Part shown: positions 18,413 to 63,923 of the stretch, in pieces
Layout: each line of letters opens with the position of its first letter
Position numbering within the stretch: position 1 is the stretch's first letter
Source: a virus
Lineage: Duplodnaviria > Caudoviricetes
IMG/VR virus record: IMGVR_UViG_3300038345_000118
Location: 22,149 to 86,148 of that record
Reading direction: 5' to 3' (one strand)
Length of the DNA stretch: 64,000 nt
Translations under genes and position numbers: made by a program
Notes under the pieces: generated by a model
Told to the model about the DNA's origin: nothing
The model's input: only the letters and a program-made list of their open reading frames with translations
Database searches by the model: none

Positions 18413-18625
18413 CGCTATGAATTTTGACAAACAAAAACTGCACTACGGGCTGTCAAGGTTCATAGCGGTGAGACCTTTGGGGCTGTTATCCAGTACCCCA
18501 CCCGGTGCAGTCGTATTTTTTGAGGATAATCCTCGTTCATTTTCGGGCACAAAAAATGCCGCTTGTTCGGCGGCTCTTTTTCTTCTTCGTGCCACCGCTA
18601 TGAATTTTTTGACATGGCAAAGATA
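18413..18625 (-). promoter_or_regulatory. promoter plus C4/CI-like antisense-type structured leader
   Basis: TATCTTTG at 18618-18625; two direct copies of TGTCAAAA(AA)TTCATAGCG and one complementary copy CACCGCTATGAACCTTGACA. Confidence 0.55.
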
Positions 18626-18839
18626 GGATGATTTTCTGAAACTTCCAAATTTTTCCGCAACTTTTTTTTGAGCGAAATCAGGTTATAACAAAGTTATAAA
18701 AAAAATTTGATATACCAATTTGGCATATCAAAAATATGTAAATGGATGTTCTATCTGTTTTGAAGTCGCAATTTGCGACTTCAAGTTATTAACTTCCTCA
18801 TTTTCAAAATGATTGAATTTGACATCACAATTTGTGATA

Positions 18840-19142
18840 TCAAAGAGCCGGTCGCATGATGGAGAGTCCAAGCGCGTTGATGATGCTAAGGAAGAAGCCT
18901 GCGGATGGTTCCACTCTTCCTGTCTCGATGCGCGAGATGTAGGACTTCTTGCTGCCTACGCGGTCGGCAAGTTCCTGCTGCGTGATGCCGTCGTGCTTGC
19001 GGGCATCACGAATGATAGTGCCAACATAGTAGGCGTATGCCTCGCGGCGAAAATGGTCGCGCTGCGGAGTGCCAGGCTGACCGACGAGTGAGTTCATCAC
19101 TTCGTCGAAACTGTGTACATCAGGATTGATCTTTGCTTGCAT
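18840..19142 (-). CDS. higA: HigA-like Xre HTH antitoxin
   Basis: IRDARKHDGITQQELADRVGSKKSYISRIETG; downstream of a RelE-like gene. Confidence 0.85.
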   Translation of the reverse strand: MQAKINPDVHSFDEVMNSLVGQPGTPQRDHFRREAYAYYVGTIIRDARKHDGITQQELADRVGSKKSYISRIETGRVEPSAGFFLSIINALGLSIMRPAL

Positions 19143-19455
19143 AGTATTCTTTCTTTAATTTGACTGCTTTATTGATTTCGGATGTGGGTGTCTTCTGTGT
19201 CTTCTTCTGAAATCCGTTGAATAGCATGACGATGTTGTTGCCATCGAAGATGAAGAATGCGCGATAGATGTTACCCATGTGGAAGGCCCTGAGTTCAAAG
19301 ACACCATCTCGTATGTGCTTGACAAACTGCTGGTTCAGGCGCTGCTGTGTCTTCAGCATGTCTAACACATAGAGAACTTTCCTCTGTGCTCCTTTGTCGA
19401 GCGACTGAAAGAAGTCAAGGAAGTAGTGCTTGTAGTACAGTATCTTTCGCTCCAC
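19120..19455 (-). CDS. higB: RelE/HigB-family toxin (Gp49-like)
   Basis: GTG start just after TATCTTTG (19460-19467); GVFELR, YRAFFIF, LFNGFQKKTQKTP. Confidence 0.85.
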   Translation of the reverse strand: MERKILYYKHYFLDFFQSLDKGAQRKVLYVLDMLKTQQRLNQQFVKHIRDGVFELRAFHMGNIYRAFFIFDGNNIVMLFNGFQKKTQKTPTSEINKAVKLKKEYYASKDQS

Positions 19456-19601
19456 GGTGCAAAGATAGCAAATGTTTTCAAATATGAAAACTTTTTGTGG
19501 ATTTTTTTGCAAAATAAAATTCAGCCCGCCGGACACGGGGCTGGGCGGGCTGAACGCAGGCGGTCTGGCTCCCTCCCTTCGGGAGGGGCAGGGGTGGGTT
19601 T

Positions 19602-20039
19602 TTACGGCTCAACGGTGCCGTTCTCTCCATCGTCGGAATCGAAGCCGGCATAGATGTCGGCCTCTTTGAAGGTGGCATCTTCGAACAGCTGACGAGCACG
19701 GAAGCGCTTGCCGAGGAAGAGGTTCATGTGGACACCCTTGATGCAGTTGGCGGTGAAATCGGAGGCCGTATCGCAGCCACGGGTGGAGATGCCAATCTTG
19801 AAAATGCCCAGTTCGTCGAACTCCACGGCCTTGCCCTCCAGGAGCAGCTCGCGCAGACAGACTTCCATCTCTACGAGCACACCACGGATGGTGCCCTCGG
19901 AGAACACACAATGGTGATTGGCCATGTGCGTTATAAATTCCTCAAAGGTGACGCGCTCGTGGGTGGCCCGTCCGTAATACTTCATGTAGCTCATTTCGGC
20001 CTTCTCGTTCTTGTTCTGGTACTTTTTGTAACGGATCAT
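19602..20039 (-). CDS. Bacteroidetes HU-like DNA-binding protein
   Basis: LLLEGKAVEFDELGIFKIGIST, typical HU-HIG pattern. Confidence 0.85.
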   Translation of the reverse strand: MIRYKKYQNKNEKAEMSYMKYYGRATHERVTFEEFITHMANHHCVFSEGTIRGVLVEMEVCLRELLLEGKAVEFDELGIFKIGISTRGCDTASDFTANCIKGVHMNLFLGKRFRARQLFEDATFKEADIYAGFDSDDGENGTVEP

Positions 20040-20196
20040 GGTTCAGAAAAGTTTAGGGTTGTGTGGCACTATTGCCGCCGTAAAGGTAGGCAAAGAGTTT
20101 ATCCTGCAGTCGGTTCGTTTGGGATATGGTCGGTTATCGTCGGTAACAGTCGGCAGAAATCACTCGAATACGCCGGGAAAATATTAACTTTGTGGT

Positions 20197-20415
20197 ATGA
20201 AAGCGTTTCGAGTTAAAGAATACGGGAGGACGGAGTTGGCCCTGCTCTACTGTCCGGACATCACGCCCGATGCCGCGTGGCGGAAGTTGCGGCAGTGGAT
20301 TCACCATTTTCCTGGACTCGAAGAGAGTCTGGCCGAACACGGCTACACCAACCGCTGCCGCTCGTTCACTCCGGCACAGGTTCGCCTGATAGTGGAAGCG
20401 CTTGGAGAACCCTAA
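20197..20415 (+). CDS. DUF4248-like protein
   Basis: YGRTELALLYCPD...RSFTPAQVRLIVEALGEP; promoter TAACTTTG at 20185-20192. Confidence 0.85.
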   Translation: MKAFRVKEYGRTELALLYCPDITPDAAWRKLRQWIHHFPGLEESLAEHGYTNRCRSFTPAQVRLIVEALGEP

Positions 20416-20719
20416 ATCCTTTAACATATTTTTTGTGCTGGTTTTTGGCAAAAATCAATATAATCTTTTTCAAAAACCAATATGATTTTAAAAAGTTAAG
20501 AGTGAAGAGTGAAAGGCTACGGGTAGGCGAGCATCGCTCGGGAATGGAGTGAAGAATTGGCGCTTCGCGCGATTATCAATTAAGAATTAAGAATTAAGCA
20601 TTAAGCATTAAATCGCTTTCCGTATCGCTTAGGGCATTTTGCTCGTTTTTGTGACTATGTTTTAACTTTTTTTATGGGGTTATTTTCAACGGCTCAAATT
20701 CCTCATTTTCTCATTTTCT

Positions 20720-21154
20720 TCATCTCTCATTTTCTTTGGGCACCGCCTCGCGCCAGATGCCTTTCTGGTTGGGCTGGTACTTCAGACCTTTGCGCTTGCG
20801 GATGGGTGGGTCCTTGGGGTTGTGGACGAAGGAGCGGCGGGTGGGGTCGAAACGTTGCTGCTCCACCACCTCGCGGCGCATGTTGCGCGTGGGGGCGAAC
20901 TTCAGGCGCTTGCAGGCGGGCACGGTGCGGATTTCGTCGCGACCTCCGTAGGTGTAGTGATACTTACGTTCGGGGATGTCGATGACGGCGAAGGTGCCGA
21001 ACGACTCGACGGGTACACAGAGTGAACCTTCGGCAAGCTGGAAACGGATCTCGTCGAAGACGGCGGGCAGCACCTGCTCGACGGTGGCCCTGCTGATGCC
21101 GCTGCGCTTCACGACGGCGGCGATGAAATGTTTTTTGTAGTCGTAGGGACGCAT
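20720..21154 (-). CDS. HU/IHF-family DNA-binding protein
   Basis: AVVKRSGISRATVEQVL, VESFGTF, VPACKRLKFAP. Confidence 0.8.
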   Translation of the reverse strand: MRPYDYKKHFIAAVVKRSGISRATVEQVLPAVFDEIRFQLAEGSLCVPVESFGTFAVIDIPERKYHYTYGGRDEIRTVPACKRLKFAPTRNMRREVVEQQRFDPTRRSFVHNPKDPPIRKRKGLKYQPNQKGIWREAVPKENER

Positions 21155-21158
21155 ATTT

Positions 21159-21392
21159 TCAAGTGAAGAGTGAAGAGTGAAGAGTGAAGAATTTGCTGCC
21201 GCACAACGTAACCATTACGAACAGCATGGCAAACAGGATGGCAGCAACGATGTAAAACGCCGTGCGCCATGCGTTGCGTTCACGCTCTATGCCGTAGTTG
21301 TCGATAGAAGTTTGAAGACTTTTGTGCCATACCTTCATGTATTCTTGATCGTCTGGCCTCGGTGCCGGAATGTCTGAGGGTTGAATTTTCAT
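21159..21392 (-). CDS. small membrane protein
   Basis: One TM helix; C-terminus formed by the heptamer repeat (FFTLHSSLFT). Confidence 0.7.
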   Translation of the reverse strand: MKIQPSDIPAPRPDDQEYMKVWHKSLQTSIDNYGIERERNAWRTAFYIVAAILFAMLFVMVTLCGSKFFTLHSSLFT

Positions 21393-21803: not shown

Positions 21804-21873
21804 TTTAAGTTAAGAGTGAAGAGTGAAGAGTGAAGTATCCACTCCCTCCCCTCGGGGAGGGTCGGGGTGGGGG

Positions 21874-22017: not shown

Positions 22018-22047
22018 GTAAGTGAAGAGTGAAGAATTTTTTAAAGG

Positions 22048-24098: not shown

Positions 24099-24744
24099 TG
24101 CGTTGCAAAGGTAAGTAATTTTATCGTAACTACCAAGAAATTAGATAGTTATCTTTTGAAATTTGGTTTTTGAAAAGCCGCATTTGTCCGCTTGTCTGGC
24201 GACTATCAAAACGCCGAATAACTCGTAACTCACTGATTATCAATTATTTATTTTAAAATTTTGCGGTTATTTTTATATTTTTATATTCATAAAGTGATTC
24301 AAAAAAAGGAAAGGATAGTATATATATATTATGTAAGTTATTGTATATCAATCATTTATTTTTATTTATCAATCTCTTATTACTTATAGTGGGTATGAGG
24401 GAGTTTCGCGCATGTATGATGAAATTAGTATTTCAATAAGAGAGTTTATATGTTTTTTTTGTTTTTAAAATACTTTGGGCGAAAAATGGGTGTTTTTAGA
24501 CAAGTGGGTAAAAAATGCATTGTAACTTATTGATATTCAGATAGGTTTCACTTATTTTTGCGTTAGACAAATAAAATGGCGAAAAACGGCACTTTTTGGA
24601 GTGTAACTTATTGATAATCAGTACTTGTCTAAAGTTTGTCCAAAACTTATTTTTTTGAGCCTAAATCAGACAAAAACAAGCGTTTTTGAATAAGTTGGAA
24701 AACTTTTGGAGAAGCAAACGGAAATGATTAACTTTGCCGTCGAG

Positions 24745-25368
24745 ATGGAGAAAAACTACAAGATACCGCCGATAACGTGGCTGAAGATGACGGACTACAT
24801 GCACGGTTGGCTGCAGCATGAGCTGGGCGGCGGTGCGAGAATCAAGGACCAGCGCGTAGTATGCGTGCAGCATCTGCCTGGTGCCAGGGAGGTGTTGCGC
24901 ATGGAAACGGTGGAGGATATGATGGAGAAGCGTCCTGCCGGCAATGCCATGAGCGGCACGCGGAAGAACTGTCTATGTGCCGGGATGGAACTGGACCCCG
25001 GTGTAATCGAGCGCGAGTACGGCATGACAAAAGAGCTGCTGAAGTTATACGTTCCCATCGAGTGTCCGAAGATGTGCCTGACGAAGAACGGCGTACTGCG
25101 TCCGTGGACGCTCAACGTATGCTTTGACAAGGAGCAGGCCACGGCTCTGCAGAAGTTGCTCAGACGTGAGTTTTGGAAGGCTGTGGAGAAATATAACGCG
25201 GAGTATGCCAGAAAGATGGGCGGGAAGAAATATCCTGCAATCGACATGATTGAGAATTTCTGCATGGATACCGAAACGCCGGACATGTACACAGAGGCCA
25301 TCAGGCGGGAATGGCAGCGGAGATGTAAGAGAAAACCCACCCCTACCCCTCCCGAAGGGAGGGAATGA
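24745..25368 (+). CDS. hypothetical protein (stand-alone; late activator candidate)
   Basis: Start re-set to MEKNYK just after TAACTTTG (24729-24736); basic helical C-terminus IRREWQRRCKR. Confidence 0.75.
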   Translation: MEKNYKIPPITWLKMTDYMHGWLQHELGGGARIKDQRVVCVQHLPGAREVLRMETVEDMMEKRPAGNAMSGTRKNCLCAGMELDPGVIEREYGMTKELLKLYVPIECPKMCLTKNGVLRPWTLNVCFDKEQATALQKLLRREFWKAVEKYNAEYARKMGGKKYPAIDMIENFCMDTETPDMYTEAIRREWQRRCKRKPTPTPPEGRE

Positions 25369-25375
25369 TTAGGCA

Positions 25376-26215
25376 TTATTTCCTCATGTCTTTGCCTTTA
25401 AATTCAATGGCGCGGACGATGGAGCGCAGGCGGCTAATGACCTCGTTGCCGTAGCGTTCCTGTATAGATAGCGGGTAACGCGGGTCATTGACGGGTGTGG
25501 TGGAGAGATTAGTGGTGATGATGAGCAGGTTTCCGTTCTGTTCCGCAGCGTCGCACAACTGGTAGAACGAGTCGTCTGGATTTCCGTAGTACTTTGCAGG
25601 TTCGCGTCCGAGACCGTCGATGATGACGATGCGCTCTTTCAGCAGGTCGTTGACCTTTGCTCTCATCTCAGTGGCCTTAACCGCAGGCACTTTTCGTCCG
25701 AGAATAACCGGCAGTATCTTCTCGCAGATAACTGTCTTTCCAAGTCCGCTAATGCCAACGCAGAGCAGCCCCCTACCCCGGTTGTCGGTCAGCCATTCTG
25801 CCACCTCGTCGTAAGCTGGAATCCACTGTACTTTGTCGCCCAGGAAATGTTGAAGTCCTTTCTTCAACCGCTCATGCGCGTTTGGTATAATTATATGCGG
25901 CCGTTGCAGATATGGGCCAGACGTTTCGTTTTGCAGAAAGTCAACGGGTGCTGACGCTTTGCTCTCCGCAATGCGATAGTTGAGTCTGACACCGGGTTTG
26001 AAACTGGAGTCAAGAGCCCATTTCATCATGGGCACGTGAATCTCCTCGATGTATTCAAAGACATAGCGGCTGGGCAGGCACAACACTACCGCGTTCTGCT
26101 CTTCGTCGTAGCGCTCGCAAATGATATCCTTGAACCATACATCAAAGACGTGCTGGCTCACCTTCAGCCGGATGAGTTGCTGGCATTGGTTCCAGAGTTG
26201 CTGCATATTTTCCAT
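25376..26215 (-). CDS. DnaA domain I fused to a DnaC/IstB-like ATPase
   Basis: LWNQCQQLIRLKVSQHVFDVWFKD (DnaA_N); Walker A GISGLGKT; IIIDGLGREP; LLIITTNL. Confidence 0.8.
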   Translation of the reverse strand: MENMQQLWNQCQQLIRLKVSQHVFDVWFKDIICERYDEEQNAVVLCLPSRYVFEYIEEIHVPMMKWALDSSFKPGVRLNYRIAESKASAPVDFLQNETSGPYLQRPHIIIPNAHERLKKGLQHFLGDKVQWIPAYDEVAEWLTDNRGRGLLCVGISGLGKTVICEKILPVILGRKVPAVKATEMRAKVNDLLKERIVIIDGLGREPAKYYGNPDDSFYQLCDAAEQNGNLLIITTNLSTTPVNDPRYPLSIQERYGNEVISRLRSIVRAIEFKGKDMRK

Positions 26216-26220
26216 GATGA

Positions 26221-27246
26221 CTATTTCTTATCGTTTCCAAAGAGTTCCATTCCGCTGTCTGTCGGCTGCTGCACTACGGGTTCAGGCTCTACGGATAGCG
26301 TTTTATAAGTTGTCTTGTTTTGCCGGTTCCGTTGTTCTATTGCCTTCTGAGTTTCAAGAAGGCCCTGCTTGATGTTACGCCCAAGATCGGTGAGGTGTAT
26401 ATGAAAGGCTATAGACTCCGGCGTGCCGCGTTTCTTTCCCGGCGGGTATATAAACTCGTATTCGAATGTACAGTCGATGCGGTCGGCGGCTTCGAGGATT
26501 TCCCGTCGAGCCGGTTCCAGCACACGCTTCTTGAAGTCGTTGATGTCACGGTATTTGTCAACGGTAGCCTTCTTAGTCTCCTTGTCGTAAGTCGTCAGGA
26601 GTATCTTCCGTAATTTCTCGTAGCTGATGACCCATGTGCCGAGTTGCTTGTTAGCGTTGATGAGCAGGTAAATACGTCCGGCATAGTTGCTGGAGAAGAG
26701 GAAGATAGCATCTTTCAGGTAGCGATGGTAAGGCGTAATGCGGAATAGGTCCTTGGCCGTCGTCTCCGTCATGTGCAAATAGATATTCTGGCGACGCTTT
26801 CCCGGCACGTCCTTGTCTATATCGACGACTGGAAACGCCACGGTGTATCTCATTTTCCCCTCCACCTCCTTTTCATAGACGATGGACTGCATGGACTTAG
26901 CCGCCGTATCCACGTCGTTGTAGTGCTGCGGTTCTATGCCAAGCTCAGAATAAGCCACCTTGAAGGTAAGATAGCGTGAGCGGTCATCGGGCGAGATAGG
27001 CTTGTAGTCTTCGCTGTCAAAAAGGTCTCCGATAAGTCCCTCCTTTGACTTTCTTTCGAGCGCCTTCTTGATTTTACCCTGCAGCTTCTCCATGATGGTA
27101 GTCTGGATGCGTGTCTGCATCATCGACATTTCACCGTTTAGATAAGTGAATGTGATGGGCTGCGTGATCATCTTTCGCTGTTCAGCGGGAACGCTGCTGA
27201 TAATTTCCTGCTTCAGCTGTTCAGCCTTACGTGACTTTCTTGCCAT
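26221..27246 (-). CDS. Rep_3-family plasmid replication initiator
   Basis: Start re-set to MARKS; MITQPITFT, FSSNYAGRIYLLI, KYRDINDFKKRVLEPA; upstream iterons. Confidence 0.85.
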   Translation of the reverse strand: MARKSRKAEQLKQEIISSVPAEQRKMITQPITFTYLNGEMSMMQTRIQTTIMEKLQGKIKKALERKSKEGLIGDLFDSEDYKPISPDDRSRYLTFKVAYSELGIEPQHYNDVDTAAKSMQSIVYEKEVEGKMRYTVAFPVVDIDKDVPGKRRQNIYLHMTETTAKDLFRITPYHRYLKDAIFLFSSNYAGRIYLLINANKQLGTWVISYEKLRKILLTTYDKETKKATVDKYRDINDFKKRVLEPARREILEAADRIDCTFEYEFIYPPGKKRGTPESIAFHIHLTDLGRNIKQGLLETQKAIEQRNRQNKTTYKTLSVEPEPVVQQPTDSGMELFGNDKK

Positions 27247-27312
27247 AATGTGTATCTTTAAAATATTACCATTGACATGGGACCGTTGTAGCCAAATCCC
27301 TGCATTCGGTGG

Positions 27313-27882
27313 CAAAGTTACAAATTTGTCCGAGAAGTTCCAAGCGTTTTCCCCTTTATTTTCTGATGTTTAGAAAACCTTTAACTTTTGTTAGTATTTT
27401 AAAAATCGGTAAAAGTTACGGAAATGTCCGAGTTTGACGGCGTGCGGCGGTTAAGAAAGTTACGGAAATGTCCGAGAACAGTTCCGCTTTTGTCTGAAAA
27501 ATAATAAAACATGTTCCGTTTTTGTCCGGAATCATTTCCGAAACCGTCTGAAAAGAGTTACGGTTTTGTCGGAAACATCTTCCGTAACTGTCTGAAAACA
27601 CTTCCGTTTTTGTCCGCAACAAGTTCCGTTTTTGTCCGTGAATATTTTGTATCTTGCTATTAATAAGCAAGTTAGGCGTACCTAATATATACTATTCTTT
27701 ATTATACTAATATGCAGATCATTCAAATAACCCGTTTTTATATTTCCTTTTTTATTCTTTAGAATTATGCAGAAAGTACTCTCTGACAGTAAGTTACTGA
27801 TAATCAGCACGGTTTTTCAATAACACATAAAATGTATTTTCGGACAAAAACGTAACTTTAAAATTCGGACAGATTTGTAACT
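27313..27882. repeat. iteron array / plasmid-type replication origin
   Basis: 18-bp units (e.g. AGTTCCGTTTTTGTCCG) at 27316, 27414, 27458, 27480, 27512, 27534, 27556, 27578, 27600, 27622; six consecutive at exact 22-bp spacing; inverted copies at 27840 and 27865; first copy overlaps the rep -7 box (27313-27320). Confidence 0.9.
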
Positions 27883-28396: not shown

Positions 28397-28461
28397 GTTT
28401 TTGCTCTATTGAATTATTGTAATATTGTATTATTGTTATTGTGCAATATTGCATTATCACA

Positions 28462-28833
28462 TTATTGCGCTACAGTCTTACGGCCTTTCCATCCGTATTC
28501 ATTAGGAAGAGACAGGGCTTCGTTACGTTGTTCGGTTGTAATTACCCCCTGTTGTTCGAGTCCAATAAGGATGGTCTCGAAGAAGAACCGCTTTGCGGTT
28601 AGATCTTTGTCCTCTGCAAATCTCGTGGCAAGTCGGTGGATGGACTTTGGGAGGAAGCATAGTGCCCCGACGGGTTTTTCGGCTGCGAGTCCGGTAGGTT
28701 CTTCGACTTCGGATGAAGAGTTGCTATCCCCCACCCTGCTTTCAATGGCACGTTTGCGGCGCAGGATTTCTTCTGGTGTCTCGTTAAGGATCTGCGCCGG
28801 CTTTTCTGATTTCTTTTTGCTTAGTGCTGACAT
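28462..28833 (-). CDS. small ParA-partner protein (ParG/RHH-like candidate)
   Basis: 123 aa directly downstream of parA, flanked by TATTG repeats. Confidence 0.6.
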   Translation of the reverse strand: MSALSKKKSEKPAQILNETPEEILRRKRAIESRVGDSNSSSEVEEPTGLAAEKPVGALCFLPKSIHRLATRFAEDKDLTAKRFFFETILIGLEQQGVITTEQRNEALSLPNEYGWKGRKTVAQ

Positions 28834-28844: not shown

Positions 28845-29000
28845 TTTATTGAATTATTGTTATATTGCTATATTGCTTTATCGAATTATTGCAATAACGT
28901 TATATTGTAATATTGTTGTATCGTGATATCGTTATAACGTAATAATGTAATATCGAAATATTGTAATATAGTTATACTGCAATATTGTATTATTGCAATA
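28845..29000. repeat. AT-rich TATTG(C/T)/GCAATA repeats (centromere-like); similar blocks at 28405-28470 and 29925-29990
   Basis: Dense iterated TATTGY; ATTGCAATATTGCAGTA occurs twice upstream of parA. Confidence 0.7.
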
Positions 29001-29826
29001 ATGTTTTAGTGCGCTTAATGATTTCATTGGCGAGAAGTGTGAACTCTTCGCGTGGTATGTCGGCGCGTGGGGTGGAGTAGACGCTTGTGAACTCGCGCTG
29101 GCTTTTGCTGACGGCTTCGCGTTCTGAGATGCTGACAGGCAGTATTTCCTTGCCGTAACGTGATTTGAGTTGTTCTTCTGCCTCGCGCTGTCCTTTGATA
29201 TATGCCTTACGCCGGGTTATCAGGAATCCGAGGTTAGTCAGTTCATCGTTTTCACTCTCGCGTATTTCCTGGATGTATGCCAGGTAGTTCTGCAGTCCGT
29301 TGAGTGCGAATCCTTCGAGGTTGATGGGAATCAGCACGGCATTGACGGCGATCAGGATGTTGTCGATAAGGACTTGCGGTCCGACGGGCGAGTCAATCAG
29401 GATGAAGTCGAAATCCGTCATCCAGTCGGTGATGCCTTCGCCGGTATGATCATCCGGTGCTTTCTGCAAGGCCCGGGTTAGTTTCATGGCCGGGTTGCGC
29501 ATGGTGGGAAGCTGCTGGTCCACCTTGTTCATAATCGAGGTGGACGGGCAGTAGTAGAGTCCCGACTCGCTCCGGTAGACGGGGATGGGTGCATCCTCAC
29601 ACAGTACGTGGTAGATGGTGGGGTAGTGCTGCAGTTCGAGGTCTGGGTTCCAGTCGGTACAGCTGGAGAGGTTAGCTTGCCGGTCCATGTCGATGACCAT
29701 GACGCGGTAGCCTTGCAAGTGCAGGGCCATTGCCAGATTGAGTGTGGTCGTGGTTTTACCCACGCCACCTTTGTAGTTGCCGATGCCGATGACGGCACGC
29801 AGCTGTGTCTTGCGTTTTTTTACCAT
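28990..29826 (-). CDS. parA: ParA partition ATPase
   Basis: Start re-set to MVKKRK; NYKGGVGKTTT, VIDMDRQAN, FILIDSP, LIPINLEGF; promoter TATCTTTG at 29902-29909. Confidence 0.92.
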   Translation of the reverse strand: MVKKRKTQLRAVIGIGNYKGGVGKTTTTLNLAMALHLQGYRVMVIDMDRQANLSSCTDWNPDLELQHYPTIYHVLCEDAPIPVYRSESGLYYCPSTSIMNKVDQQLPTMRNPAMKLTRALQKAPDDHTGEGITDWMTDFDFILIDSPVGPQVLIDNILIAVNAVLIPINLEGFALNGLQNYLAYIQEIRESENDELTNLGFLITRRKAYIKGQREAEEQLKSRYGKEILPVSISEREAVSKSQREFTSVYSTPRADIPREEFTLLANEIIKRTKTLLQ

Positions 29827-30025
29827 AATGTTGTAGCTTTTATTTGAAATTGTATTTGCTCCTATATCAGGATGTTGTAGCGAATCCTTGGAGGAACGGT
29901 GCAAAGATAGGTAAAAGTTTTCAAACTATTGCAATATTGCAGTATAAAAAATGTGAATTATTGCAATATTGCAGTAAAATCGTATTGCGAATGGTCTTAT
30001 CGGGGAGTACCCTGCATGAAAGTTT

Positions 30026-33627: not shown

Positions 33628-33715
33628 AGTGAAGAGTGAAGAGTGAAGAATTGGGCTGCGACCGAGTCGCAGCATACAATTAAGCATTGTAAGATATAAA
33701 CTTTTTAAATAACAA

Positions 33716-34384
33716 ATGACAATGAAAAAGAATTTTTTTGAACAACTGTTGGGCGTGCTGCTGTTGGTAGCGACAGCCCTGATGATTAACAGCTGCAAGG
33801 GTTGTAAACAAAGTGAAGAGCAAAAAGTGAAGAGTGAAGAAGCTGCTACCGCAGCTGTTTACCACGACTATGACGGGGTAGTGCAGGACTTCACAACAGG
33901 CGTGAGCCAGATTCAGGCTTTGCACCGTCAGACCGTTTTCCATCTTGCCGGAGGCGTTAACTACGAGTGGCGCAACTCGCGTGTCATCCTGAACGACACC
34001 ATTACGGCAGAGAATATCGACAACCTGCATGTGACGGACGTCAACGACGTGTTCTGCTACTGGAATGAGCGCGGTCCGTGGGTGCAGTATGTCAACTCCA
34101 ATATTAAGAATGGTCTGCAGATTCCCTGGCCTATTAATGACGTATGGATTGAGGACAGAGACCTGAGTAACCTGCCGATTGAACTGAGTGCCGAGGATGC
34201 GCTGCTACGTCTGAAGGAATGGAACGGTGTTATCCCCTCTGCGAATTTCCTTACGCTGCGACTGCCTGTCGGTCCGAAGGATTGTAATGCGCAATGGGTT
34301 ATCGGCAATGTCTATAATACGATATTCATTGACGCGGTGACAGGAGATATAACGGATAGCAACCCTGCGTTCCCGCGAAAGTAA
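33716..34384 (+). CDS. lipoprotein
   Basis: Signal peptide with INSC lipobox. Confidence 0.8.
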   Translation: MTMKKNFFEQLLGVLLLVATALMINSCKGCKQSEEQKVKSEEAATAAVYHDYDGVVQDFTTGVSQIQALHRQTVFHLAGGVNYEWRNSRVILNDTITAENIDNLHVTDVNDVFCYWNERGPWVQYVNSNIKNGLQIPWPINDVWIEDRDLSNLPIELSAEDALLRLKEWNGVIPSANFLTLRLPVGPKDCNAQWVIGNVYNTIFIDAVTGDITDSNPAFPRK

Positions 34385-34585: not shown

Positions 34586-35365
34586 ATGGCAACGATTAAA
34601 ATCGGGAGTAGGGGAGAGGCTGTCAAACAGATTCAGCGGTCGCTGGGTCTGAACCCTGTCGATGGTGTCTTTGGCGAGAAGACAGCTGCTGCCGTTCGGG
34701 TTTTCCAGCAGGCGGCAGGACTTGTTGCTGACGGCATCGTAGGCCCTGCCACATTAGCGAAGCTGAAGGAGTGTTCGCTTGACATCGTTTCCGGGTATAT
34801 CTACAAGCACATCACCCGTTGCTCCAGCAGGCCCCTGAAGTATATTGCCATCCACTACACGGCTGGCGGTAACAGTCGGAGGGGTGCAGCCATGGCGAAC
34901 CGCAATGCGTTTCTTAGTCGTAACGCCTCTGCCGACTTTGTGGTGGATGACGAGCAGATCGTGCAGGTCAATCCTGACATCAGGAACTACTACTGTTGGG
35001 CTGTCGGTGACAAGAAGAATACGAGTAGCGGTGGCGGCAGTCTCTACGGCATTGCAACAAACAAGAATACGATCAGCATTGAAATCTGTTCTAATCTTCG
35101 CACTGGCACCACTGCTGCCATTCCCAACCACGAAGGATGGTCGTTTACGGACAAAGCACTTGATCGCGCACTCAGGCTTGTTCGCTATCTGATGCGCGTG
35201 TATGGCATTCCCAAGAGCAACGTTATCCGGCACTATGATGTGAGCGGTAAGCTTTGCCCCGGCATTATCGGGTGGAATAGCGCCTATCTCTATACGACTG
35301 CCGGAAAAGCGACTTCCGTCAAGAACAGCAGCGAGAAATGGCTGGCGTTCAAGGGGAGGATTTAG
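34586..35365 (+). CDS. endolysin: PG-binding domain plus N-acetylmuramoyl-L-alanine amidase
   Basis: VDGVFGEKT..VADGIVGPAT; IAIHYTA, ISIEIC, VIRHYDVSGKLCP. Confidence 0.92.
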   Translation: MATIKIGSRGEAVKQIQRSLGLNPVDGVFGEKTAAAVRVFQQAAGLVADGIVGPATLAKLKECSLDIVSGYIYKHITRCSSRPLKYIAIHYTAGGNSRRGAAMANRNAFLSRNASADFVVDDEQIVQVNPDIRNYYCWAVGDKKNTSSGGGSLYGIATNKNTISIEICSNLRTGTTAAIPNHEGWSFTDKALDRALRLVRYLMRVYGIPKSNVIRHYDVSGKLCPGIIGWNSAYLYTTAGKATSVKNSSEKWLAFKGRI

Positions 35366-41495: not shown

Positions 41496-41927
41496 ATGGA
41501 CTGCTTTATGATACCACGCCGGAAGGCGATTCACGAGCCTAAACCGCTACGCATAGATGGCACCACCACGTCGATGACTGCAGAACCGGACGATGCTGAA
41601 CTGGCGGCGATGGCTTTGCTCGCTTCGCTTGCAGGTAGCAGATTGGCTGCAGCGGAACCGCAGCCTGCGGAGAAGGGGACGGCGGCGTATTTTCATGCGC
41701 TTTCGGAGCGGGTACGTGAAGGACGGGCAGCAGAGGTGAGGATGGCGAGTCGGTATGTGGCCTATTGTGAGCAGGAACTGACGAATCATTCACAATTAAC
41801 CGAGCTGGAGCGCGGTCTATACCGGCATCTCGACATCATCGACCGGGAGGGGGGAGAACTGAAACGGCGGTGGCAGCACTGCCTGGCAGAGGTGATTGTC
41901 CGCCTTAATGGCGGAAGTGAAGAGTGA
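41496..41927 (+). CDS. hypothetical protein
   Basis: 143 aa. Confidence 0.7.
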   Translation: MDCFMIPRRKAIHEPKPLRIDGTTTSMTAEPDDAELAAMALLASLAGSRLAAAEPQPAEKGTAAYFHALSERVREGRAAEVRMASRYVAYCEQELTNHSQLTELERGLYRHLDIIDREGGELKRRWQHCLAEVIVRLNGGSEE

Positions 41928-41979
41928 AGAATTTGCCGCGACGGAATCGCGGCTTACGGAGAAAGAATAAAGAACATCT

Positions 41980-53527: not shown

Positions 53528-55387
53528 ATGTTAAGAGCCTATTTTGAACAGACCTTCTATGACATGCCCGTAGAGACTGCGCAGAAATACGCAGAAGGCA
53601 TCCGCGTGGCCATCATCGCCGGGAAAGACTTTGACGGCGAGAAAAAGGAAGGGTTTTTCCTGTCCAAGAAACGGGGTTTCGAGGACAAGCTATACGTTGG
53701 CAACATCCATCGTATCGAGAACCATCTGTACTGGAGAGACGAGGAACTGGCCGATGACGATCAGATTGTGAACGTGGTGATGCTTGACGGCCCCGTGACG
53801 CGCGACGGTGACGGGTGTTCGTATGGCTCCAAGGATCACCGTGACCAGATTATGTATGCCAACACCATTCCGCAGGTGGTAGGCCATATCTTCATCATTA
53901 ACACCCCCGGCGGTGCTGCCAGTGCGCGTATTGACTACGAGCAGGCCATTGCCGACTGCCGCGAGAAAGGCAAGCCTACGGTGGCGTGGGTGGACGGTCT
54001 GTGCTGCTCTGCCGGTCAGTTGGTTGCATCGCTGTGCGACCGCACAGTTGTGATGAACGGCCGAAACACGATGGGCTGTATCGGTACGATGTGTGCTTTC
54101 TGGGGCGTTCCAAACGGAACGATTGACAAGGACGGATACCGCTACATTGAACTGGTGAGCGTGACATCGCCTGACAAGAATGCTGAACACCGTGAGGCCG
54201 TTGACGGCAAGACGGAGAAGCTGCAGGCTGAGCTTGATAAGCTGGGCGAGGAGTTCCGTGAGACCGTCAGGCAGAACCGTCCGTTGGTGAAGGAAGAGCA
54301 CCTGACCGGTAAGACTTTCGAAGCACAAGACGTGATGGGTGCTCTGGTTGACGAGATTGGCGACTACAACCGTGCCATCGAGTGCGTGTTTGAGCTGGCA
54401 GATGAGAAGATGCCTGCAGCACGCTTCGCCACAAGCGAACCCGACGGAGAGACGCCGGCCACGGAGGAACCGGAAGAGCAGAAGGAAATGTCCAATCTGA
54501 ACGATCAGCAAAAAGCCGCCGTTGCCGCTAATGCCGGAGCCACGATGATAATTGACGACGGACATGTAAAGGAATCAGTTGACACCATGTTCGGACCAGT
54601 AGAAAAAGAAGTTGCAACCCCTAAAAACGATAGCACTATGACAGACGAAGAGAAGAAGGCCGCCGAAGCTGAAGCAGCCAAAGCCGCCGAACAGGAAGAA
54701 GCTGCTGCGACAGAATCGCAGCATACGGAACAGGAAGCCGAAGTGCCCTCCACCGAGGAAACGACGGCGACCGAGGAAGCGCCTGCTGCAGAGGAAGCGC
54801 CTGCCGCAGAGGAGGAGCCTTCCGGAGAAGCCCCCTCTAACTCCCCCGAAGGAGGAGAACAGGAGCAGCCCGCAACAGAGGAGCAGCCTGCCGGAGAAGC
54901 GGCTGGCACAGAAGCGCCCTCTGAGGAAACCATTGCCGAAGCGCAGGCTGAGATTGACCGAATCACCGAGTCTCTGCATACCGCCGAGGCATTGGTGGAA
55001 GAGAAGGACAAGACGATTGCTGCCTTGCAGGGCGACATGGAAGTCCTGAAGAAGGAAGCCGGCGAGAAGGATGCCACTATTGCCACGCTGGAAGGCATTG
55101 CCGAAGAGCGCGACCTGAAGGCCAAAGACCTGACGCTCGCTTTCCAGAACCTCGAAGAAAAGGACAAGACTATTGCCGAACTGAAGGCCGCTAACGAGAA
55201 GCTGGCGAAGCAGGTGGATGATCTGAAAGCCGAAGTGAAGGAACTCAGTGAGAAGCCTACGCCGATGGTGACAGCTGAGAGCGGTGTACCTTCCGCCAAC
55301 GGAACGGGTGCCGAGCCCAAGCCTGAAAAGCAGCAGCGCATCAAGCCCGGAATGAGCTACGAGGAGATTCGGGAGGCTTTGAAATAG
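53528..55387 (+). CDS. S49 prohead protease with acidic/coiled-coil scaffold C-terminus
   Basis: LDGPVTR, INTPGG, LCCSAG, SPDKN; E/A-rich coiled-coil tail. Confidence 0.9.
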   Translation: MLRAYFEQTFYDMPVETAQKYAEGIRVAIIAGKDFDGEKKEGFFLSKKRGFEDKLYVGNIHRIENHLYWRDEELADDDQIVNVVMLDGPVTRDGDGCSYGSKDHRDQIMYANTIPQVVGHIFIINTPGGAASARIDYEQAIADCREKGKPTVAWVDGLCCSAGQLVASLCDRTVVMNGRNTMGCIGTMCAFWGVPNGTIDKDGYRYIELVSVTSPDKNAEHREAVDGKTEKLQAELDKLGEEFRETVRQNRPLVKEEHLTGKTFEAQDVMGALVDEIGDYNRAIECVFELADEKMPAARFATSEPDGETPATEEPEEQKEMSNLNDQQKAAVAANAGATMIIDDGHVKESVDTMFGPVEKEVATPKNDSTMTDEEKKAAEAEAAKAAEQEEAAATESQHTEQEAEVPSTEETTATEEAPAAEEAPAAEEEPSGEAPSNSPEGGEQEQPATEEQPAGEAAGTEAPSEETIAEAQAEIDRITESLHTAEALVEEKDKTIAALQGDMEVLKKEAGEKDATIATLEGIAEERDLKAKDLTLAFQNLEEKDKTIAELKAANEKLAKQVDDLKAEVKELSEKPTPMVTAESGVPSANGTGAEPKPEKQQRIKPGMSYEEIREALK

Positions 55388-55473: not shown

Positions 55474-56754
55474 ATGGCTTACGCATTAAGTATTGCACAG
55501 ATTCAGACCGTCAAAGAGACGATCCATCCCGAGCTGGTAGCCAAGGCTTATCTGCTCACTGACTCGATGTTTGAGGACCTGGGCATGAAGGTTACAACCG
55601 ATGTCGAGAATATCGACACCTGTTACATCTTCTCCCGTCAGGGCCTTCAGGCACGCCCCTATGTGGTCGGCAACGTGAAGAGCTCTCAGCTCGGAAAGTT
55701 TGTTGACAATCCCGCCAAGGTAGAGTCCATCTATCTTCACACCTCTGACTCTATTGAGCGCTACAAGGAGAAAGGCCCGTTCCAGGAGACCAATGTCGCC
55801 GAGAGCGCCGAGCACACCACCTTCCTGCTGAAGGAACTCTCCGGTCGTTTTGCCGAGGATGTACGTGCCAACGTCTTCTTCGGAAACAAGGCCAACCGCT
55901 CACTGCCTGAGACTGCCGAGAACCAGGCCAAGCTGGGTCTCTCGCTCTTCGACGGTTTCTACACCATCATCGCCAAGCGCCGCACCGACGGCTCTATCAG
56001 CGTGGCCAACGGCAACCTGATTGAGACTGGCGACATCGCAGGCAAGACCGCCAAGCAGGTCTATGAGATTCTTACCGCCTTCTACGGTGGCCTGAGTGCC
56101 GCTATGAAGAAGCCCGAGCAGAAGGTGTACATCTACGCCAGCGACGAGTTCTGCCGCAAGGCTGTGAAGGGTTACATGGAGACCTACCCACAGATTGCCC
56201 CCACCGTGCTTCAGGCAGGTTGGAAGTTTGTGGAGATGCCCAACGTCACCCTCGCCACCTCTTCTGCCATGGGTACCGGCGGTCAGCTGATCGCCACCGT
56301 CGAGGGCAACCTGGAGTTTGTTTGCGGCAACCGCGAGAACGACGCTCTCATCAGCATCGGCCAGGTGAACACCGACCTCCGCGTGTTCGACTACCAGGCC
56401 AACGGCCGTGCCTGCGTCCGCATCCGTGACTTCGCTCCTGAAGTGTTCGCCACCAACGACGCCGTGAACACCTACACCACGCTGCCTGGCGACTACATCG
56501 CCGACATCTTCACTGTATCAAGCAGTGACGAGAACGAGGGTACCGTGGCCATCAGCAGCGGTCAGAAGGATCTCTATGCTGAGGGTGATGTCATCACTGT
56601 GGCTGCCACGCCGAAGAGCGGCTTCGTATTCACAGGGTGGAGCGATGGTTCCATTGCCAATCCCTACAACTACACCTTTACTGGTGGTGTTGAGAATCTC
56701 GTTGCCATGTTCGAGGAAGAGGATGCTTCCAGCGGCGATTCTTCCAGCGACTAA
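55474..56754 (+). CDS. major capsid protein with C-terminal InlB-B-repeat-like domain
   Basis: Follows the protease, strongly biased codons, LSLFDGFYTII; tail GDVITVAATPKSGFVFTGWSDG..NPYNYT. Confidence 0.8.
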   Translation: MAYALSIAQIQTVKETIHPELVAKAYLLTDSMFEDLGMKVTTDVENIDTCYIFSRQGLQARPYVVGNVKSSQLGKFVDNPAKVESIYLHTSDSIERYKEKGPFQETNVAESAEHTTFLLKELSGRFAEDVRANVFFGNKANRSLPETAENQAKLGLSLFDGFYTIIAKRRTDGSISVANGNLIETGDIAGKTAKQVYEILTAFYGGLSAAMKKPEQKVYIYASDEFCRKAVKGYMETYPQIAPTVLQAGWKFVEMPNVTLATSSAMGTGGQLIATVEGNLEFVCGNRENDALISIGQVNTDLRVFDYQANGRACVRIRDFAPEVFATNDAVNTYTTLPGDYIADIFTVSSSDENEGTVAISSGQKDLYAEGDVITVAATPKSGFVFTGWSDGSIANPYNYTFTGGVENLVAMFEEEDASSGDSSSD

Positions 56755-59769: not shown

Positions 59770-60052
59770 ATATTCTGTTGTATAATGTGTCAATAGCATA
59801 CATGAATAATTCAAGCCAAAGGGCGATGTATGAACAGAGGAGGGATATTGCAAGCAGCGTAAGTGAAGAGTGAAGAGTGAAGAGTGAAGAATCCGCCATT
59901 CCACACACTAACACGCTCCAGAAAGTGAAGCATTTAGGACAGTTAATGACAGGCAATTCTCGCCCTGTTCTTTCCTCAATCGCCTTAATCAGTCCGAGGT
60001 GATTGACCGTCGTGCAGATGAACACGATTGCTGCAATATCCCTCCAGTCCAT
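59717..60052 (-). CDS. membrane protein with CPKC motif
   Basis: 2-3 hydrophobic segments; in-frame heptamer insert DSSLFTLHSSL. Confidence 0.75.
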   Translation of the reverse strand: MDWRDIAAIVFICTTVNHLGLIKAIEERTGRELPVINCPKCFTFWSVLVCGMADSSLFTLHSSLTLLAISLLCSYIALWLELFMYAIDTLYNRIYGKIENNDRKEDEGRSR

Positions 60053-61235: not shown

Positions 61236-61610
61236 TTACTCATTGATGGGCGGGAGGGGTGTTGTAGCGGCGGCGGAACCGTCGCCTACGGGTAATTCTG
61301 GTAGCTGTCCTCGCTTGGCGATGACTGTGCGGATGAAGTCGTAGCCCTGAACGAGAGTTGACTGGTTTTCTTTGAGCCAGCCCATTATTCCGTTGGCCAT
61401 GTCCTTGGTGTTGTCAACCCACGTCTGCGGTGCCGGGTCGTAGTCGGGCAAGTCCGGCATGTCTTTGGCGAAGAAGTCGTAGAGTTTGTTAGCTTCTTCG
61501 ATGTCGGCCTTGCAGATAATCAGGCACTGCATTTTGAGTGTGGCCTTGGATGTAGGGCGGAGTGCTTGAATCATTTCCAGTTGTCTTTTTTTATTTTTGA
61601 ACCATTTCAT
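61236..61610 (-). CDS. hypothetical protein
   Basis: 124 aa. Confidence 0.8.
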   Translation of the reverse strand: MKWFKNKKRQLEMIQALRPTSKATLKMQCLIICKADIEEANKLYDFFAKDMPDLPDYDPAPQTWVDNTKDMANGIMGWLKENQSTLVQGYDFIRTVIAKRGQLPELPVGDGSAAATTPLPPINE

Positions 61611-61672
61611 TGCCGTGAGTGGTTAGATGAAAGGTAGGCGACGGCAAAGCCGCCGCCTACCGAGAAAGCCGT

Positions 61673-62236: not shown

Positions 62237-62388
62237 AGTTGTTTGGTTTTTGTGTTTGTGAATAAATAGAGTTGCATTGTCAAAAGGACAAGGCAAAGTT
62301 ATCTATCTGTTGCGATAAAATCGCAACCTACCGTTAAAATGGCATGAAGGGATGCGTTCAGCGTTGAAGCGGATTTTTCAAATGGCTG

Positions 62389-62616
62389 TCATACTGTCTT
62401 TTCCATGTGGTTAATGATGTTGTACACCTGCCGGTCTGTAATTCCGTAGCGTTGTGCCAGTGTCAGGAATATTCCTTTGCGGTTAGGCATTGTTTGGGAC
62501 ATTTCCAGGTAGTCACGGTACAGATCACAATACTTGTAATCATCGAGACGGACACCTGCCTGCTTCAGCTTTTGAAACAGTTCCTTGTTAAATTCAATTA
62601 ATTCTGCAAGTTTCAT
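62389..62616 (-). CDS. small HTH transcriptional regulator
   Basis: Start re-set to MKLAEL; LAQRYGITDRQVYNII is HTH-like. Confidence 0.75.
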   Translation of the reverse strand: MKLAELIEFNKELFQKLKQAGVRLDDYKYCDLYRDYLEMSQTMPNRKGIFLTLAQRYGITDRQVYNIINHMEKTV

Positions 62617-62649
62617 ACGCAAATTTTGTAAAAAGTTACTATTTTTGCA

Positions 62650-62790
62650 ATCTCTTACCTTCACGTATCATAAAAATCCACCATTGGAGAAAGAAGAGGA
62701 CATACAGTCCCCGGCCTTTCCTCCGGTGGTGGATTTACGTGCAAAAAGAAGGTAAGAGAGCTTTGCGTACAGGTCGGGGACTTTTCTTTT
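62650..62790 (+). ncRNA. candidate pseudoknotted small RNA
   Basis: TATTTTTG at 62640-62647; helices 62651-62/62748-59, 62674-83/62727-36; loop 62706-15 pairs with 62773-82; U-tract follows. Confidence 0.6.
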
Positions 62791-62879
62791 TCCTGCCCCG
62801 GTGAGGAACTTATGAACTCCGTTCTGGAGTGAGATCTACACTATCTGCCTGCAAGATAGTGTATGCGGGGGTAAGCGTC

Positions 62880-62912
62880 AAGGGCTGAAGCAGATGCTCC
62901 AGCCCTTTTTGT
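62880..62912 (+). terminator. intrinsic terminator
   Basis: AAGGGCTG-AAGCAGATGCTC-CAGCCCTTTTT. Confidence 0.7.
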
Positions 62913-62951
62913 TTTTATCCATCATAAAAAATACGCTACCTTTGCCGAAAA

Positions 62952-63923
62952 ATGGATATTCAGAACATCATCAACGGCATCGCGGAGCAGCTGCAAGGCA
63001 CGAACGCACTCATTCAAATTCAAGTGGAGGACCAGTATTATATCCGGATTATTGGTGACAGCACGCGACTGTCAAAGTCTGTACGTGCTTCTACGGTTCC
63101 TGACACACGGCCATTCCTCTCCTGGATGAAAGAGCAGATCGAGCAGGCTCCCGTCTGCGAGAACACCAAGATCAGCCACAGGAACGCGCACATGCGGCTC
63201 ACTGCCTTCCGTCCTGATGTCACGTTCGCCGACTTAAACCACAGGTTCCTGATGGACTATGAGACGCACCTTCGTGAACATGGGTACTCCGTCAACACCA
63301 TCGCCAAACAGATGCGTATCCTCAGACGCTACCTGAATCTGGCTCTCGACATGGACATCATCACGTCCAATCCTTTCCGCAAGTACCGCATCCATACACA
63401 GCCGGTTCACAAAGAAACGCTCACTGAAAAAGAACTGAAGAAGATAGAAGAAAACCTTCCGTCGCTCCCTGCCAGGGAGCAGGAGGTGGCCAAGGCGTTT
63501 CTTTTCGCCACCTATACCGGCTTGCGTTTCTCGGATCTGCAGCAAATCACGCCCGGTCACTTCAAGCGCATCAACCGACGGCAATGGCTCATCCTCCAGA
63601 TGCGGAAGACACACTCCGAGGTCCGCATCCCCGTTTCCACGATCTTCCAAGGGAAGTCCCTCACGTTCTCCCCACCATTCCGGCTACATACCAATGCTCA
63701 GTCCAACCGGACGCTCGCCCATGCGCTTGTCCGCTCCGGCATCAGGAAGCACATCACCTGGCACTGTGCCCGGCACACCTGTGCGACGCTACTCCTTGCC
63801 CGTGGTGTTCCACTTCCTGTTATACAGAGCATCTTAGGTCACGCCTCCATCACCACCACCCAAGGCTACTCCAGCATCACTGACAGCACCATCGAGCACC
63901 ACATCCGCCGTGCGTTCAGATGA
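62952..63923 (+). CDS. tyrosine recombinase (integrase/resolvase)
   Basis: SAM-like domain; catalytic TGLRFSD, HCARHT, LGH, TQGY; promoter TACCTTTG immediately upstream. Confidence 0.92.
   Translation: MDIQNIINGIAEQLQGTNALIQIQVEDQYYIRIIGDSTRLSKSVRASTVPDTRPFLSWMKEQIEQAPVCENTKISHRNAHMRLTAFRPDVTFADLNHRFLMDYETHLREHGYSVNTIAKQMRILRRYLNLALDMDIITSNPFRKYRIHTQPVHKETLTEKELKKIEENLPSLPAREQEVAKAFLFATYTGLRFSDLQQITPGHFKRINRRQWLILQMRKTHSEVRIPVSTIFQGKSLTFSPPFRLHTNAQSNRTLAHALVRSGIRKHITWHCARHTCATLLLARGVPLPVIQSILGHASITTTQGYSSITDSTIEHHIRRAFR

Follow-up and report, generated by a model that had tools for sequence, protein, structure and literature searches.

A probable plasmid prophage of rumen Bacteroidales with an iteron replicon, a partition locus and a candidate tail-fibre-tip invertase

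The virus record IMGVR_UViG_3300038345_000118 is a single contig of 86,148 bp, and its final 64,000 bases, about three quarters of the contig, were analysed as the window of this study. The phage-plasmid class combines tailed-phage virion genes with plasmid-type replication and partition genes on one replicon, and both were found here. Judged from gene content and from comparison with related contigs, the phage probably lives as a plasmid prophage rather than as a chromosomal insertion. As an account of the whole, a low-copy circular plasmid prophage whose tyrosine recombinase serves as a fibre-tip invertase appears likely. The source is most likely a tailed phage of rumen Bacteroidales with a predicted full genome of about 115-135 kb. 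An earlier note on this DNA had likened the element to phage P1 and proposed that it is kept as a plasmid, with a recombinase that may resolve dimers. The comparison supported plasmid maintenance; it did not support dimer resolution.

Replication, partition and lifestyle

Searches with the Rep protein and the capsid candidate of the window yielded seven related contigs. Six of these were fetched whole, and every open reading frame (ORF) was compared. One of the six, C8, is a 113.6-kb contig of a Bacteroidaceae metagenome-assembled genome (MAG) from water-buffalo rumen, and the other five are IMG/VR records of 132.6, 126.1, 125.9, 96.5 and 50.8 kb. All six were collinear with the record, and three relatives were rated 100% complete by CheckV. 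No match to PF00589 (tyrosine recombinase) or PF00239 (serine resolvase) was obtained in any of the five IMG/VR relatives; the recombinase-family searches gave matches in 14/14 and 12/14 control genomes. All six relatives have a ParA homologue in the corresponding place, where five also gave a Rep-like match. Together with the kinship of Rep to plasmid initiators, these results agree with the proposal of a prophage kept as a plasmid. The ten largest ORFs in the extra DNA of C8 were sampled, and none was recognisable as a host gene.

The Rep_3-type initiator (Table 1) matched Rep3_C over the cut-off and also a PHROG labelled 'replication initiation protein'. In a tblastn search, 68-85% of its length aligned with annotated initiators from 41 PLSDB plasmids, at 26-31% identity. 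Bacteroidales accounted for 38 of these 41 records, including pBF9343 of B. fragilis NCTC 9343, and the matches cover plasmids of Bacteroides, Phocaeicola, Prevotella and Segatella. In the relatives G005, C8 and G006 the protein was 69-84% identical. About ten direct iterons with the consensus GGACAAAAACGGAAC lie in the origin region, mostly 22 or 44 bp apart from start to start, and one of them overlaps the start of rep. When up to three mismatches were allowed, GGACAAAAACGGAAC had seven matches in the window, six of them in the origin region, versus 1.8 expected, and 0 of 100 shuffled sequences reached seven. Iteron arrays matching those of the window were located upstream of rep in C8 and G005. 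The Rep_3 gene with iterons that had been proposed was thus recovered, and the initiator would bind the 22-bp-spaced iterons beside the AT-rich stretch and thereby start replication.

The gene directly downstream of rep encodes a protein of 279 amino acids (aa) with a DnaA_N domain, which matched DnaC-like ATP-binding families of NCBIfam below their cut-offs and has homologues of 38-52% identity in four relatives. It is a probable helicase loader, predicted from its domains, and would form part of the replication machinery. A minus-strand ORF at 24795-25376 had also been considered as a Par or Rep partner; it was rejected, as only the plus-strand frame stays open in the relatives, and the real gene is on the plus strand at 24706-25368.

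The partition ATPase matched ParA_partition of NCBIfam (1.2e-26, under its cut-off) in addition to its Pfam families, and it has no long N-terminal helix-turn-helix (HTH) extension. Its homologues, all at the same position, were 92% identical in C8, 85% in G005 and 34-37% in the remaining relatives. The minus-strand frame of the small partner is open in C8 (120 aa, 75% identity) and G005 (129 aa, 70%) and the plus-strand frame is not; 28462-28833 was therefore assigned to the minus strand. Arrays of the 8-bp unit TATTGnnA occupy three places, namely after the partner gene, between parA and the partner gene (the largest array) and upstream of parA, and they were found at the same places in C8 and G005. 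The two-unit pattern gave 29 matches versus 4.3 expected, and 27 of the 29 were within the three arrays. ParA, a small partner and centromere-like repeats, all named in the earlier note, were accordingly present. ParA and the 123-aa protein would segregate the copies, with the partner binding to the three arrays that flank both genes.

The size of the 304-aa ParA, that of the 123-aa partner and the repeat arrays make the system look like type Ib rather than the type Ia of P1. In type Ib systems (par2 of pB171, ParF/ParG of TP228) a small Walker-type ParA is combined with a small partner with a basic N-terminal tail and with arrays of short direct repeats up- and downstream of the operon. The present locus differs from these two in that the partner has no detectable homology and at most a putative ribbon-helix-helix fold, and that the largest array is located between the genes. 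For the partner, Atlas gave a lead, and only a lead, to McdB-type ParA partners (score 0.92).

In C8 and G005, Rep, iterons, ParA, partner and TATTG arrays were all closely similar to those of the window. G004 and G002 encode Rep proteins of 28-31% and ParA proteins of 35-37% identity and have their own iterons with a period of 21-23 bp beside rep; G004 also has a different 8-bp unit, CTTATCTG, in 13 copies beside its parA. Iterons were thus seen in C8, G005, G004 and G002, and centromere-like arrays in C8, G005 and G004. Divergent iterons and 8-bp units at one fixed position look like diversified incompatibility determinants, and a Rep/iteron/Par module that has diversified yet is fixed in position suggests selection of the incompatibility type. 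Because the group lacks an integrase, nearly always has an iteron replicon and a partition locus, and has diversified in the way of incompatibility determinants, it is most simply regarded as a lineage of plasmid prophages. It is rather more likely than not that it forms an undescribed lineage of circular phage-plasmids of rumen Bacteroidales, about 115-135 kb in size, in which the modules are fixed in place, the specificities are exchanged as if by incompatibility and the accessory genes are swappable.

Some observations would also be compatible with a virulent or pseudolysogenic phage that has acquired genes from plasmids, for instance to persist in a carrier state, and that lacks a true stable plasmid stage. 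A C1-like master repressor was not identified, most virion and regulatory proteins had no family match, every record is metagenomic, and crAssphage is an example of unusual persistence among Bacteroidales phages (PMC10983915). However, iterons, ParA with centromere arrays, a toxin-antitoxin pair and a c4-type RNA (the last two described below) are inheritance and immunity devices for dividing cells. The binning of one relative with a Bacteroidaceae MAG is consistent with residence in cells, and the Rep/iteron/Par module diversified while its position was kept. This alternative is unlikely.

Terminal repeats, direct or inverted, are lacking in the record and likewise in the MAG contig C8, but the relative G005 has an exact end overlap of 127 bp and was assembled as a circle (IMG/VR class, direct terminal repeats). 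In the five long relatives, an extra 30-45 kb separates the homologue of 62389-62664 from that of the first gene of the record. This block encodes conserved proteins of 2600, 1046, 353 and 491 aa, among others, all of which the record lacks; the record is therefore a truncated genome.

Several points weigh against the plasmid-prophage reading. As the contig is truncated, the 30-45 kb missing from this genome could include an integrase gene. The circle of G005 does not prove a plasmid state, because a terminally redundant virion genome gives the same assembly. The master repressor is again the missing piece here, and the 123-aa ParA partner matched no family and no recognisable DNA-binding family. 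Lastly, the relatives yielded neither HigB nor the c4 module, both of which thus appear to be accessory rather than part of the core maintenance functions.

The recombinase and its core site

The 323-aa tyrosine recombinase at the end of the window has the catalytic residues R, HxxR, H and Y, which are visible in the translation, and no arm-binding domain. It had been described as having a short, atypical N terminus. A SAM_5 domain followed by the catalytic domain, with no arm domain, was indeed found, but the shortness is a trait of the family rather than a peculiarity of this protein, since those listed among its 741 homologues are mostly 320-335 aa long. None of the six relatives has the gene, and when the MAG of C8 was searched with the protein, only weak matches were obtained, on other contigs. 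The closest homologues, 87-94% identical, belong to different phages of smaller size, in which the gene is flanked by lysis genes and tail-fibre-like genes. DNA similarity to these loci begins at the start codon and ends about 49 bp past the stop codon.

The 21-bp sequence TTTTGTCCTGGCCGGACAAAT that directly follows the stop codon also follows the recombinase stop in the loci L048, L049, L050 and L052. In L048, L049 and L052 a second, inverted copy lies at a distance of 3.5-4.1 kb, within the 5' part of a minus-strand tail-fibre-like gene; the genes that hold the inverted core encode GDSL-lipase or DUF4886 domains. In L052 a promoterless frame of 601 aa opens inside the first core arm. When the segment was inverted in silico, the first 148 residues of the 872-aa gene were joined to the 601-aa frame in an in-frame fusion of 753 aa with a different C-terminal part. 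The window comprises a single core site and the opening 19 codons of one silent tip, at which point the contig ends.

A natural case of such inversion was observed in L053 and L054, which come from different samples and are 99.3-99.8% identical. Between them, two segments of 1604 and 945 bp (9011-11585) are exactly inverted; the inversions begin 6 bp past the stop codon of a 334-aa recombinase and lie among LRR_5 gene fragments. This recombinase is 45% identical to that of the window, and the difference between the two loci is a natural shufflon polymorphism. In L048 (9480-13019), a 38.9-kb phage with a recombinase of 91% identity, each half of the segment was found to consist of a fibre tip and a small gene, 354 plus 138 aa facing 521 plus 177 aa, an arrangement that recalls the S-U / S'-U' pairs of phage Mu.

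Based on the homologous loci, in which the core is inverted in fibre-like genes with in-frame tip swapping, the best reading of the recombinase is a DNA invertase of tail-fibre tips of the Rin-shufflon kind, functionally comparable to Cin and not to Cre of P1. It would sit at the edge of an invertible segment and swap alternative C-terminal tips onto a tail-fibre gene, which would lie in the part of the genome missing from the contig. Three contigs, the record included, end 14-77 bp after the recombinase gene, and these breaks are probably due to an assembler that meets both orientations in the sample. A point against this reading is that neither a second core site nor the expressed fibre gene was observed in this genome, as the contig ends just past the first site.

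Plasmid prophages need multimer resolution, which in P1 is provided by Cre/lox, and the earlier note had suggested that the recombinase may resolve dimers. A Cre-like resolvase acting at a lox-like site in a plasmid prophage would agree with a short tyrosine recombinase of Xer/Cre size without an arm domain, and with the core TTTGTCC-TGGCC-GGACAAA, a palindromic Xer/lox-like site. Yet both gene and site are missing from the six relatives, including complete ones with the same replicon, which argues against a core maintenance function such as that of Cre. All three homologous loci that reach far enough have two inverted sites, in frame in fibre genes, with silent alternative tips; the close homologues adjoin invertible tail-fibre cassettes in other phages. 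The frame opens exactly at the core in the window too, and natural inversions adjoin a member of the family. The suggestion of dimer resolution was therefore not upheld, and a Cre-like role is very improbable.

An ordinary integrative prophage, in which the recombinase is the integrase, the contig ends at or near attP, and Rep and Par serve lytic or transient replication, was judged improbable as well. Many temperate Bacteroidales phages integrate, 77 bp separate the recombinase gene, with its full catalytic set, from the end of the contig, and the part of the genome beyond the contig is unseen. On the other hand, the enzyme is XerD-sized like its whole family and lacks the arm-binding domain, and its close homologues sit in the midst of late genes of phages instead of at phage-host junctions. 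The duplication of the post-stop site in inverted orientation inside a fibre gene points to inversion, not to integration. In the five IMG/VR relatives an integrase is lacking altogether, yet ParA is retained in all of them and Rep with iterons in most. A phage that is integrated or purely lytic has no use for a partition system with three centromere arrays.

Comparison with known systems

Escherichia phage P1 is the prototype of the phage-plasmid class (Pfeifer et al. 2021 NAR, as cited in 10.1101/2023.11.10.566511). By function, its counterparts of the present modules are RepA/incC-incA, ParAB/parS, Phd-Doc, c4/icd-ant, DarB and Cin/C-segment. The modules themselves differ, as P1 has type Ia ParA/ParB/parS, Phd-Doc and a serine invertase, whereas the present element has type Ib-like partition, HigBA and a tyrosine recombinase. 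P1 also has Cre/lox, of which no equivalent was found in the window, where the sole recombinase is of a kind tied to inverted fibre-gene sites in homologous loci. A DNA search of the phage collection and PHROG and Pfam searches with the virion proteins revealed no homology to P1 beyond the methylase part of the DarB-like protein. The likeness to P1 thus holds as a functional analogy but not for the partition type, the toxin-antitoxin family or the virion; as far as sequence comparison can tell, the parallel is surprisingly complete in function and is not membership of the P1 group. The hosts differ from those of the P1 group too, the host phylum here being Bacteroidota, and one paper states that the P1 subgroup was not found in Bacteroidota.

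The Rin shufflon of Bifidobacterium prophages was reported as the first phage-encoded tyrosine invertase (Mavrich et al. 2018, PMC6109161). As with Rin, the homologous loci have a Xer-sized tyrosine recombinase without an arm domain at the edge of invertible DNA, and short crossover sites in frame between the constant N-terminal and the alternative C-terminal parts of a receptor-binding or tail-fibre gene. Unlike Rin, the present enzyme belongs to a family with a SAM_5 N-terminal domain that is typical of Bacteroidota, and its site is a 21-bp palindromic core encoding FVLAGQI compared to the 11-bp rix. Functional analogues of the fibre switch are Cin of P1, Gin of Mu, Min of p15B and Rci of R64.

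The nearest plasmid counterpart is pBF9343 of B. fragilis NCTC 9343 (NC_006873), the initiator of which is homologous within the identity and length range given above for the PLSDB matches. Bacteroidales iteron plasmids such as this one are 35-45 kb in size, are mostly typed as conjugative and have no virion genes. Carjivirus communis (crAssphage) has been proposed to be a linear phage-plasmid of Phocaeicola (PMC10983915; Schmidtke et al. 2025, cited in PMC12823448). Both are Bacteroidales phages proposed to persist without integrating, but crAssphage is reported as a linear element of a different phage order, and the present lineage has a classical circular-plasmid toolkit. In the text of PMC10983915 iterons are not mentioned, and ParA occurs only in the description of P1.

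Phage-plasmids are well documented in Proteobacteria, Firmicutes and Actinobacteria, and the present element is probably a new lineage of this known class. For Bacteroidota, only the atypical linear crAssphage was found to be discussed in the literature searched, which was incomplete and is weak evidence of novelty. If the reading is true, this would be the first classical group of phage-plasmids in Bacteroidota, that is, P1-style, circular and iteron-driven, and it would extend the phage-plasmid lifestyle to a dominant phylum of gut and rumen. Its replicon and partition locus could further serve as a natural cassette in genetic tools for Prevotella and Bacteroides. Surveys of prophage activity and integration that depend on host flanks would miss such elements. 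Furthermore, a lone tyrosine recombinase at a contig end is not automatically an integrase or a Cre; here it is read as the marker of an invertible host-range switch and as the probable cause of the assembly break.

Virion, accessory and other genes

The positions of the main features are listed in Table 1.

Table 1. Features of the 64,000-base window and divergent repeats of two relatives
Feature	Position	Strand	Details
Rep_3 / winged-helix initiator	26221..27315	-	Pfam Rep3_C 1.3e-7, over cut-off; WH2 of iteron-binding initiators
Origin region	27314..27882	-	direct iterons 27314-27644; AT-rich ~27660-27835; two inverted iterons 27837-27882
DnaA_N + DnaC/IstB-like AAA+ protein, 279 aa (probable helicase loader)	25376..26215	-	Pfam DnaA_N 2.2e-9; directly downstream of rep
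ParA-type partition ATPase, 304 aa	28990..29904	-	Pfam AAA_31 1.7e-34, CbiA 1.7e-21
ParA partner, 123 aa	28462..28833	-	basic N terminus; frame kept open in relatives
Centromere-like arrays, 8-bp unit TATTGnnA	28407-28468; 28847-29004; 29927-29973	.	about 8, 20 and 6 copies
Tyrosine recombinase, 323 aa	62952..63923	+	Pfam SAM_5 7.7e-20, Phage_integrase 2.1e-20
Core site TTTTGTCCTGGCCGGACAAAT	63924-63944	+	21 bp, directly after recombinase stop; two 7-bp inverted arms, short spacer
Promoterless fibre-tip frame FVLAGQIADVQDEVDE...	within 63924..64000	+	opens at core, runs off contig 57 bases later
Large terminase, 637 aa	36104..38017	+	Walker A (GRGTGKT) and Walker B/E (GDE) invariant in 7 homologues
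Tape measure protein, 2324 aa	42544..49518	+	Pfam PhageMin_Tail 7.3e-10
Prohead protease/scaffold	53528-55387	+	Peptidase_S49
Probable major capsid protein	55474-56754	+	C-terminal Flg_new_2 domain; candidate, Atlas lead
Endolysin	34586..35365	+	PG_binding_1 + Amidase_2
HigB-type toxin	19120-19536	-	Pfam Gp49 7.5e-24; NCBIfam RelE/ParE-family toxin 1.9e-10, below cut-off
HigA-type HTH antitoxin	18840-19142	-	HTH_3 1.1e-14; downstream of HigB, 23-nt overlap
c4-type antisense module	17953..18614	-	target 1, terminator-like hairpin, c4-2 RNA, target 2, 152-aa ORF
152-aa ORF, predicted to be c4-controlled	17953-18411	-	no Pfam, PHROG or NCBIfam match
DarB-like methylase-helicase, C-terminal 1198 of 1628 aa	1..3594	-	Eco57I, SNF2-rel_dom, Helicase_C; continues left of window
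AGTGAAG arrays, part 1	1871-1899, 12275-12302(-), 12584-12597(-), 20494-20514, 21162-21190, 21808-21835
AGTGAAG arrays, part 2	22021-22034, 33628-33648, 33826-33839, 41916-41929, 59862-59889
Divergent repeats in relatives	L028:2035-2147 and 5293-5476 (G004); L033:7023-7344 (G002)

The virion genes had been taken as a full module. Terminase, tape measure protein, S49 protease and endolysin were present, but the conserved block of all five long relatives is missing from the record. The 2324-aa ORF had also been considered as the DarB-like enzyme and was rejected, being the tape measure protein. Structure models of the capsid and terminase candidates were built from alignments of seven sequences. 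The C-terminal domain of the terminase model gave Z values of 8.7-11.8 with 13 nuclease domains of large terminases, although the model as a whole was poor (pLDDT 48). The model of the capsid candidate was unusable (pLDDT 45), and its Atlas score of 0.89 to Phi29_MCP (phi29-type) clusters is a lead only. Sequence and profile searches of the PDB with the capsid, terminase and 628-aa proteins gave no match, and neither did PHROG and Pfam searches with most virion proteins or with the genes at 58-62.7 kb. No homologue of the capsid candidate was found in PLSDB plasmids; among 401 sampled Bacteroidales genomes the only close homologue was in the already known MAG. At the DNA level there was no match to the phage collection, and only a trivial ParA match to the plasmid collection. 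An 816-aa protein encoded between the tape measure and head genes (49573-52023, plus strand) has Stealth_CR2 and DUF4422 domains, which are glycosyltransferase-like, and homologues of 57-62% identity in C8, G005 and G006.

The HigBA pair was present as proposed, with the gene of the Gp49 toxin upstream of that of the HTH_3 antitoxin and overlapping it. No HigB homologue was found in any of the six relatives. HigBA would add post-segregational killing in this particular genome.

The proposed C4-like antisense leader was also confirmed. The Rfam family c4-2 (RF02944, clan CL00128) matched at 18434-18512 on the minus strand with 45.7 bits versus a gathering threshold of 41, covering model positions 1-79 of 79, and this stretch folded better than 200 of 200 shuffled sequences (z-score -3.0). 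The second loop of the RNA is CCGCUAUGAACCUUGACA at 18451-18468. As read from the sequence, target 1 (TGTCAAAAAATTCATAGCGG, 18595-18614) is a two-block complement of CCGCUAUGAACCUUGACA (TGTCAA...TTCATAGCGG). Target 2 (TGTCAAAATTCATAGCG, 18413-18429) is likewise a complement of CCGCUAUGAACCUUGACA (TGTCAA..TTCATAGCG) and ends 1 nt before the ATG of the 152-aa ORF. The c4 RNA of P1 is reportedly laid out in the same manner, with targets a1/b1 and a2/b2. By the logic of immI of P1, the c4-type RNA would mask the translation start of the 152-aa gene; to call its product an antirepressor would be a guess, as it matched no family. In G005 and C8, the two relatives searched, no match to the c4 RNA was found. 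A solo TnpB gene (16461-17858, minus strand), with OrfB_IS605 and Cas12f1-like TNB domains, was located directly downstream of the 152-aa ORF, and no tnpA was present in the window.

The DarB-like enzyme named in the earlier note is present with Eco57I, SNF2 and Helicase_C domains, but it lies at the left edge of the window, outside the part to which it had been assigned. It is homologous to phage proteins annotated as 'DarB-like antirestriction', at 24-30% identity over 85-94% of the length, and its N-terminal methylase part matched darB of P7 (9e-9). ArdC is encoded at 9843-10811 on the minus strand, and together with the DarB-like protein it would protect incoming DNA. For ArdC and TnpB, only matches of 24-26% identity, at other positions, were found in the relatives. 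HigB, the c4 RNA with the 152-aa ORF, TnpB, ArdC and the recombinase were therefore regarded as swappable additions in this genome rather than maintenance functions of the whole lineage, as nothing closely corresponding to them was found in the relatives.

ArdC and the DarB-like protein belong to a long train of minus-strand genes (3598-14922, and L001/L002) which also includes a C5 methylase and a protein with a MutS_I domain (8358-9770). Further products of this train (3598-14922) are a protein of 1159 aa that has a DnaG-type zinc ribbon and a helicase of 1002 aa that contains PMBR repeats. The train is reminiscent of the anti-defence 'leading regions' found in conjugative plasmids. HU-type DNA-binding proteins are encoded twice on the minus strand, at 19602-20039 and 20720-21154; one of the two has an HU-HIG domain, and the one at 20720-21154 was conserved in all six relatives. 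No tRNA genes were found in the 64-kb window. C8 has an Rfam tRNA match (L010:10785-10891, minus strand), unusually long at 107 nt, in a part missing from the record.

Tandem arrays of the heptamer AGTGAAG in 2-4 copies occur at 11 sites of the window, mostly at gene ends or in intergenic regions, and the corresponding 14-mer had 23 matches versus 0.04 expected. These arrays may be regulator-binding sites or an RNA signal. Further heptamer arrays consist of the units TAATGCT, AATTAAG and TTAATGC.

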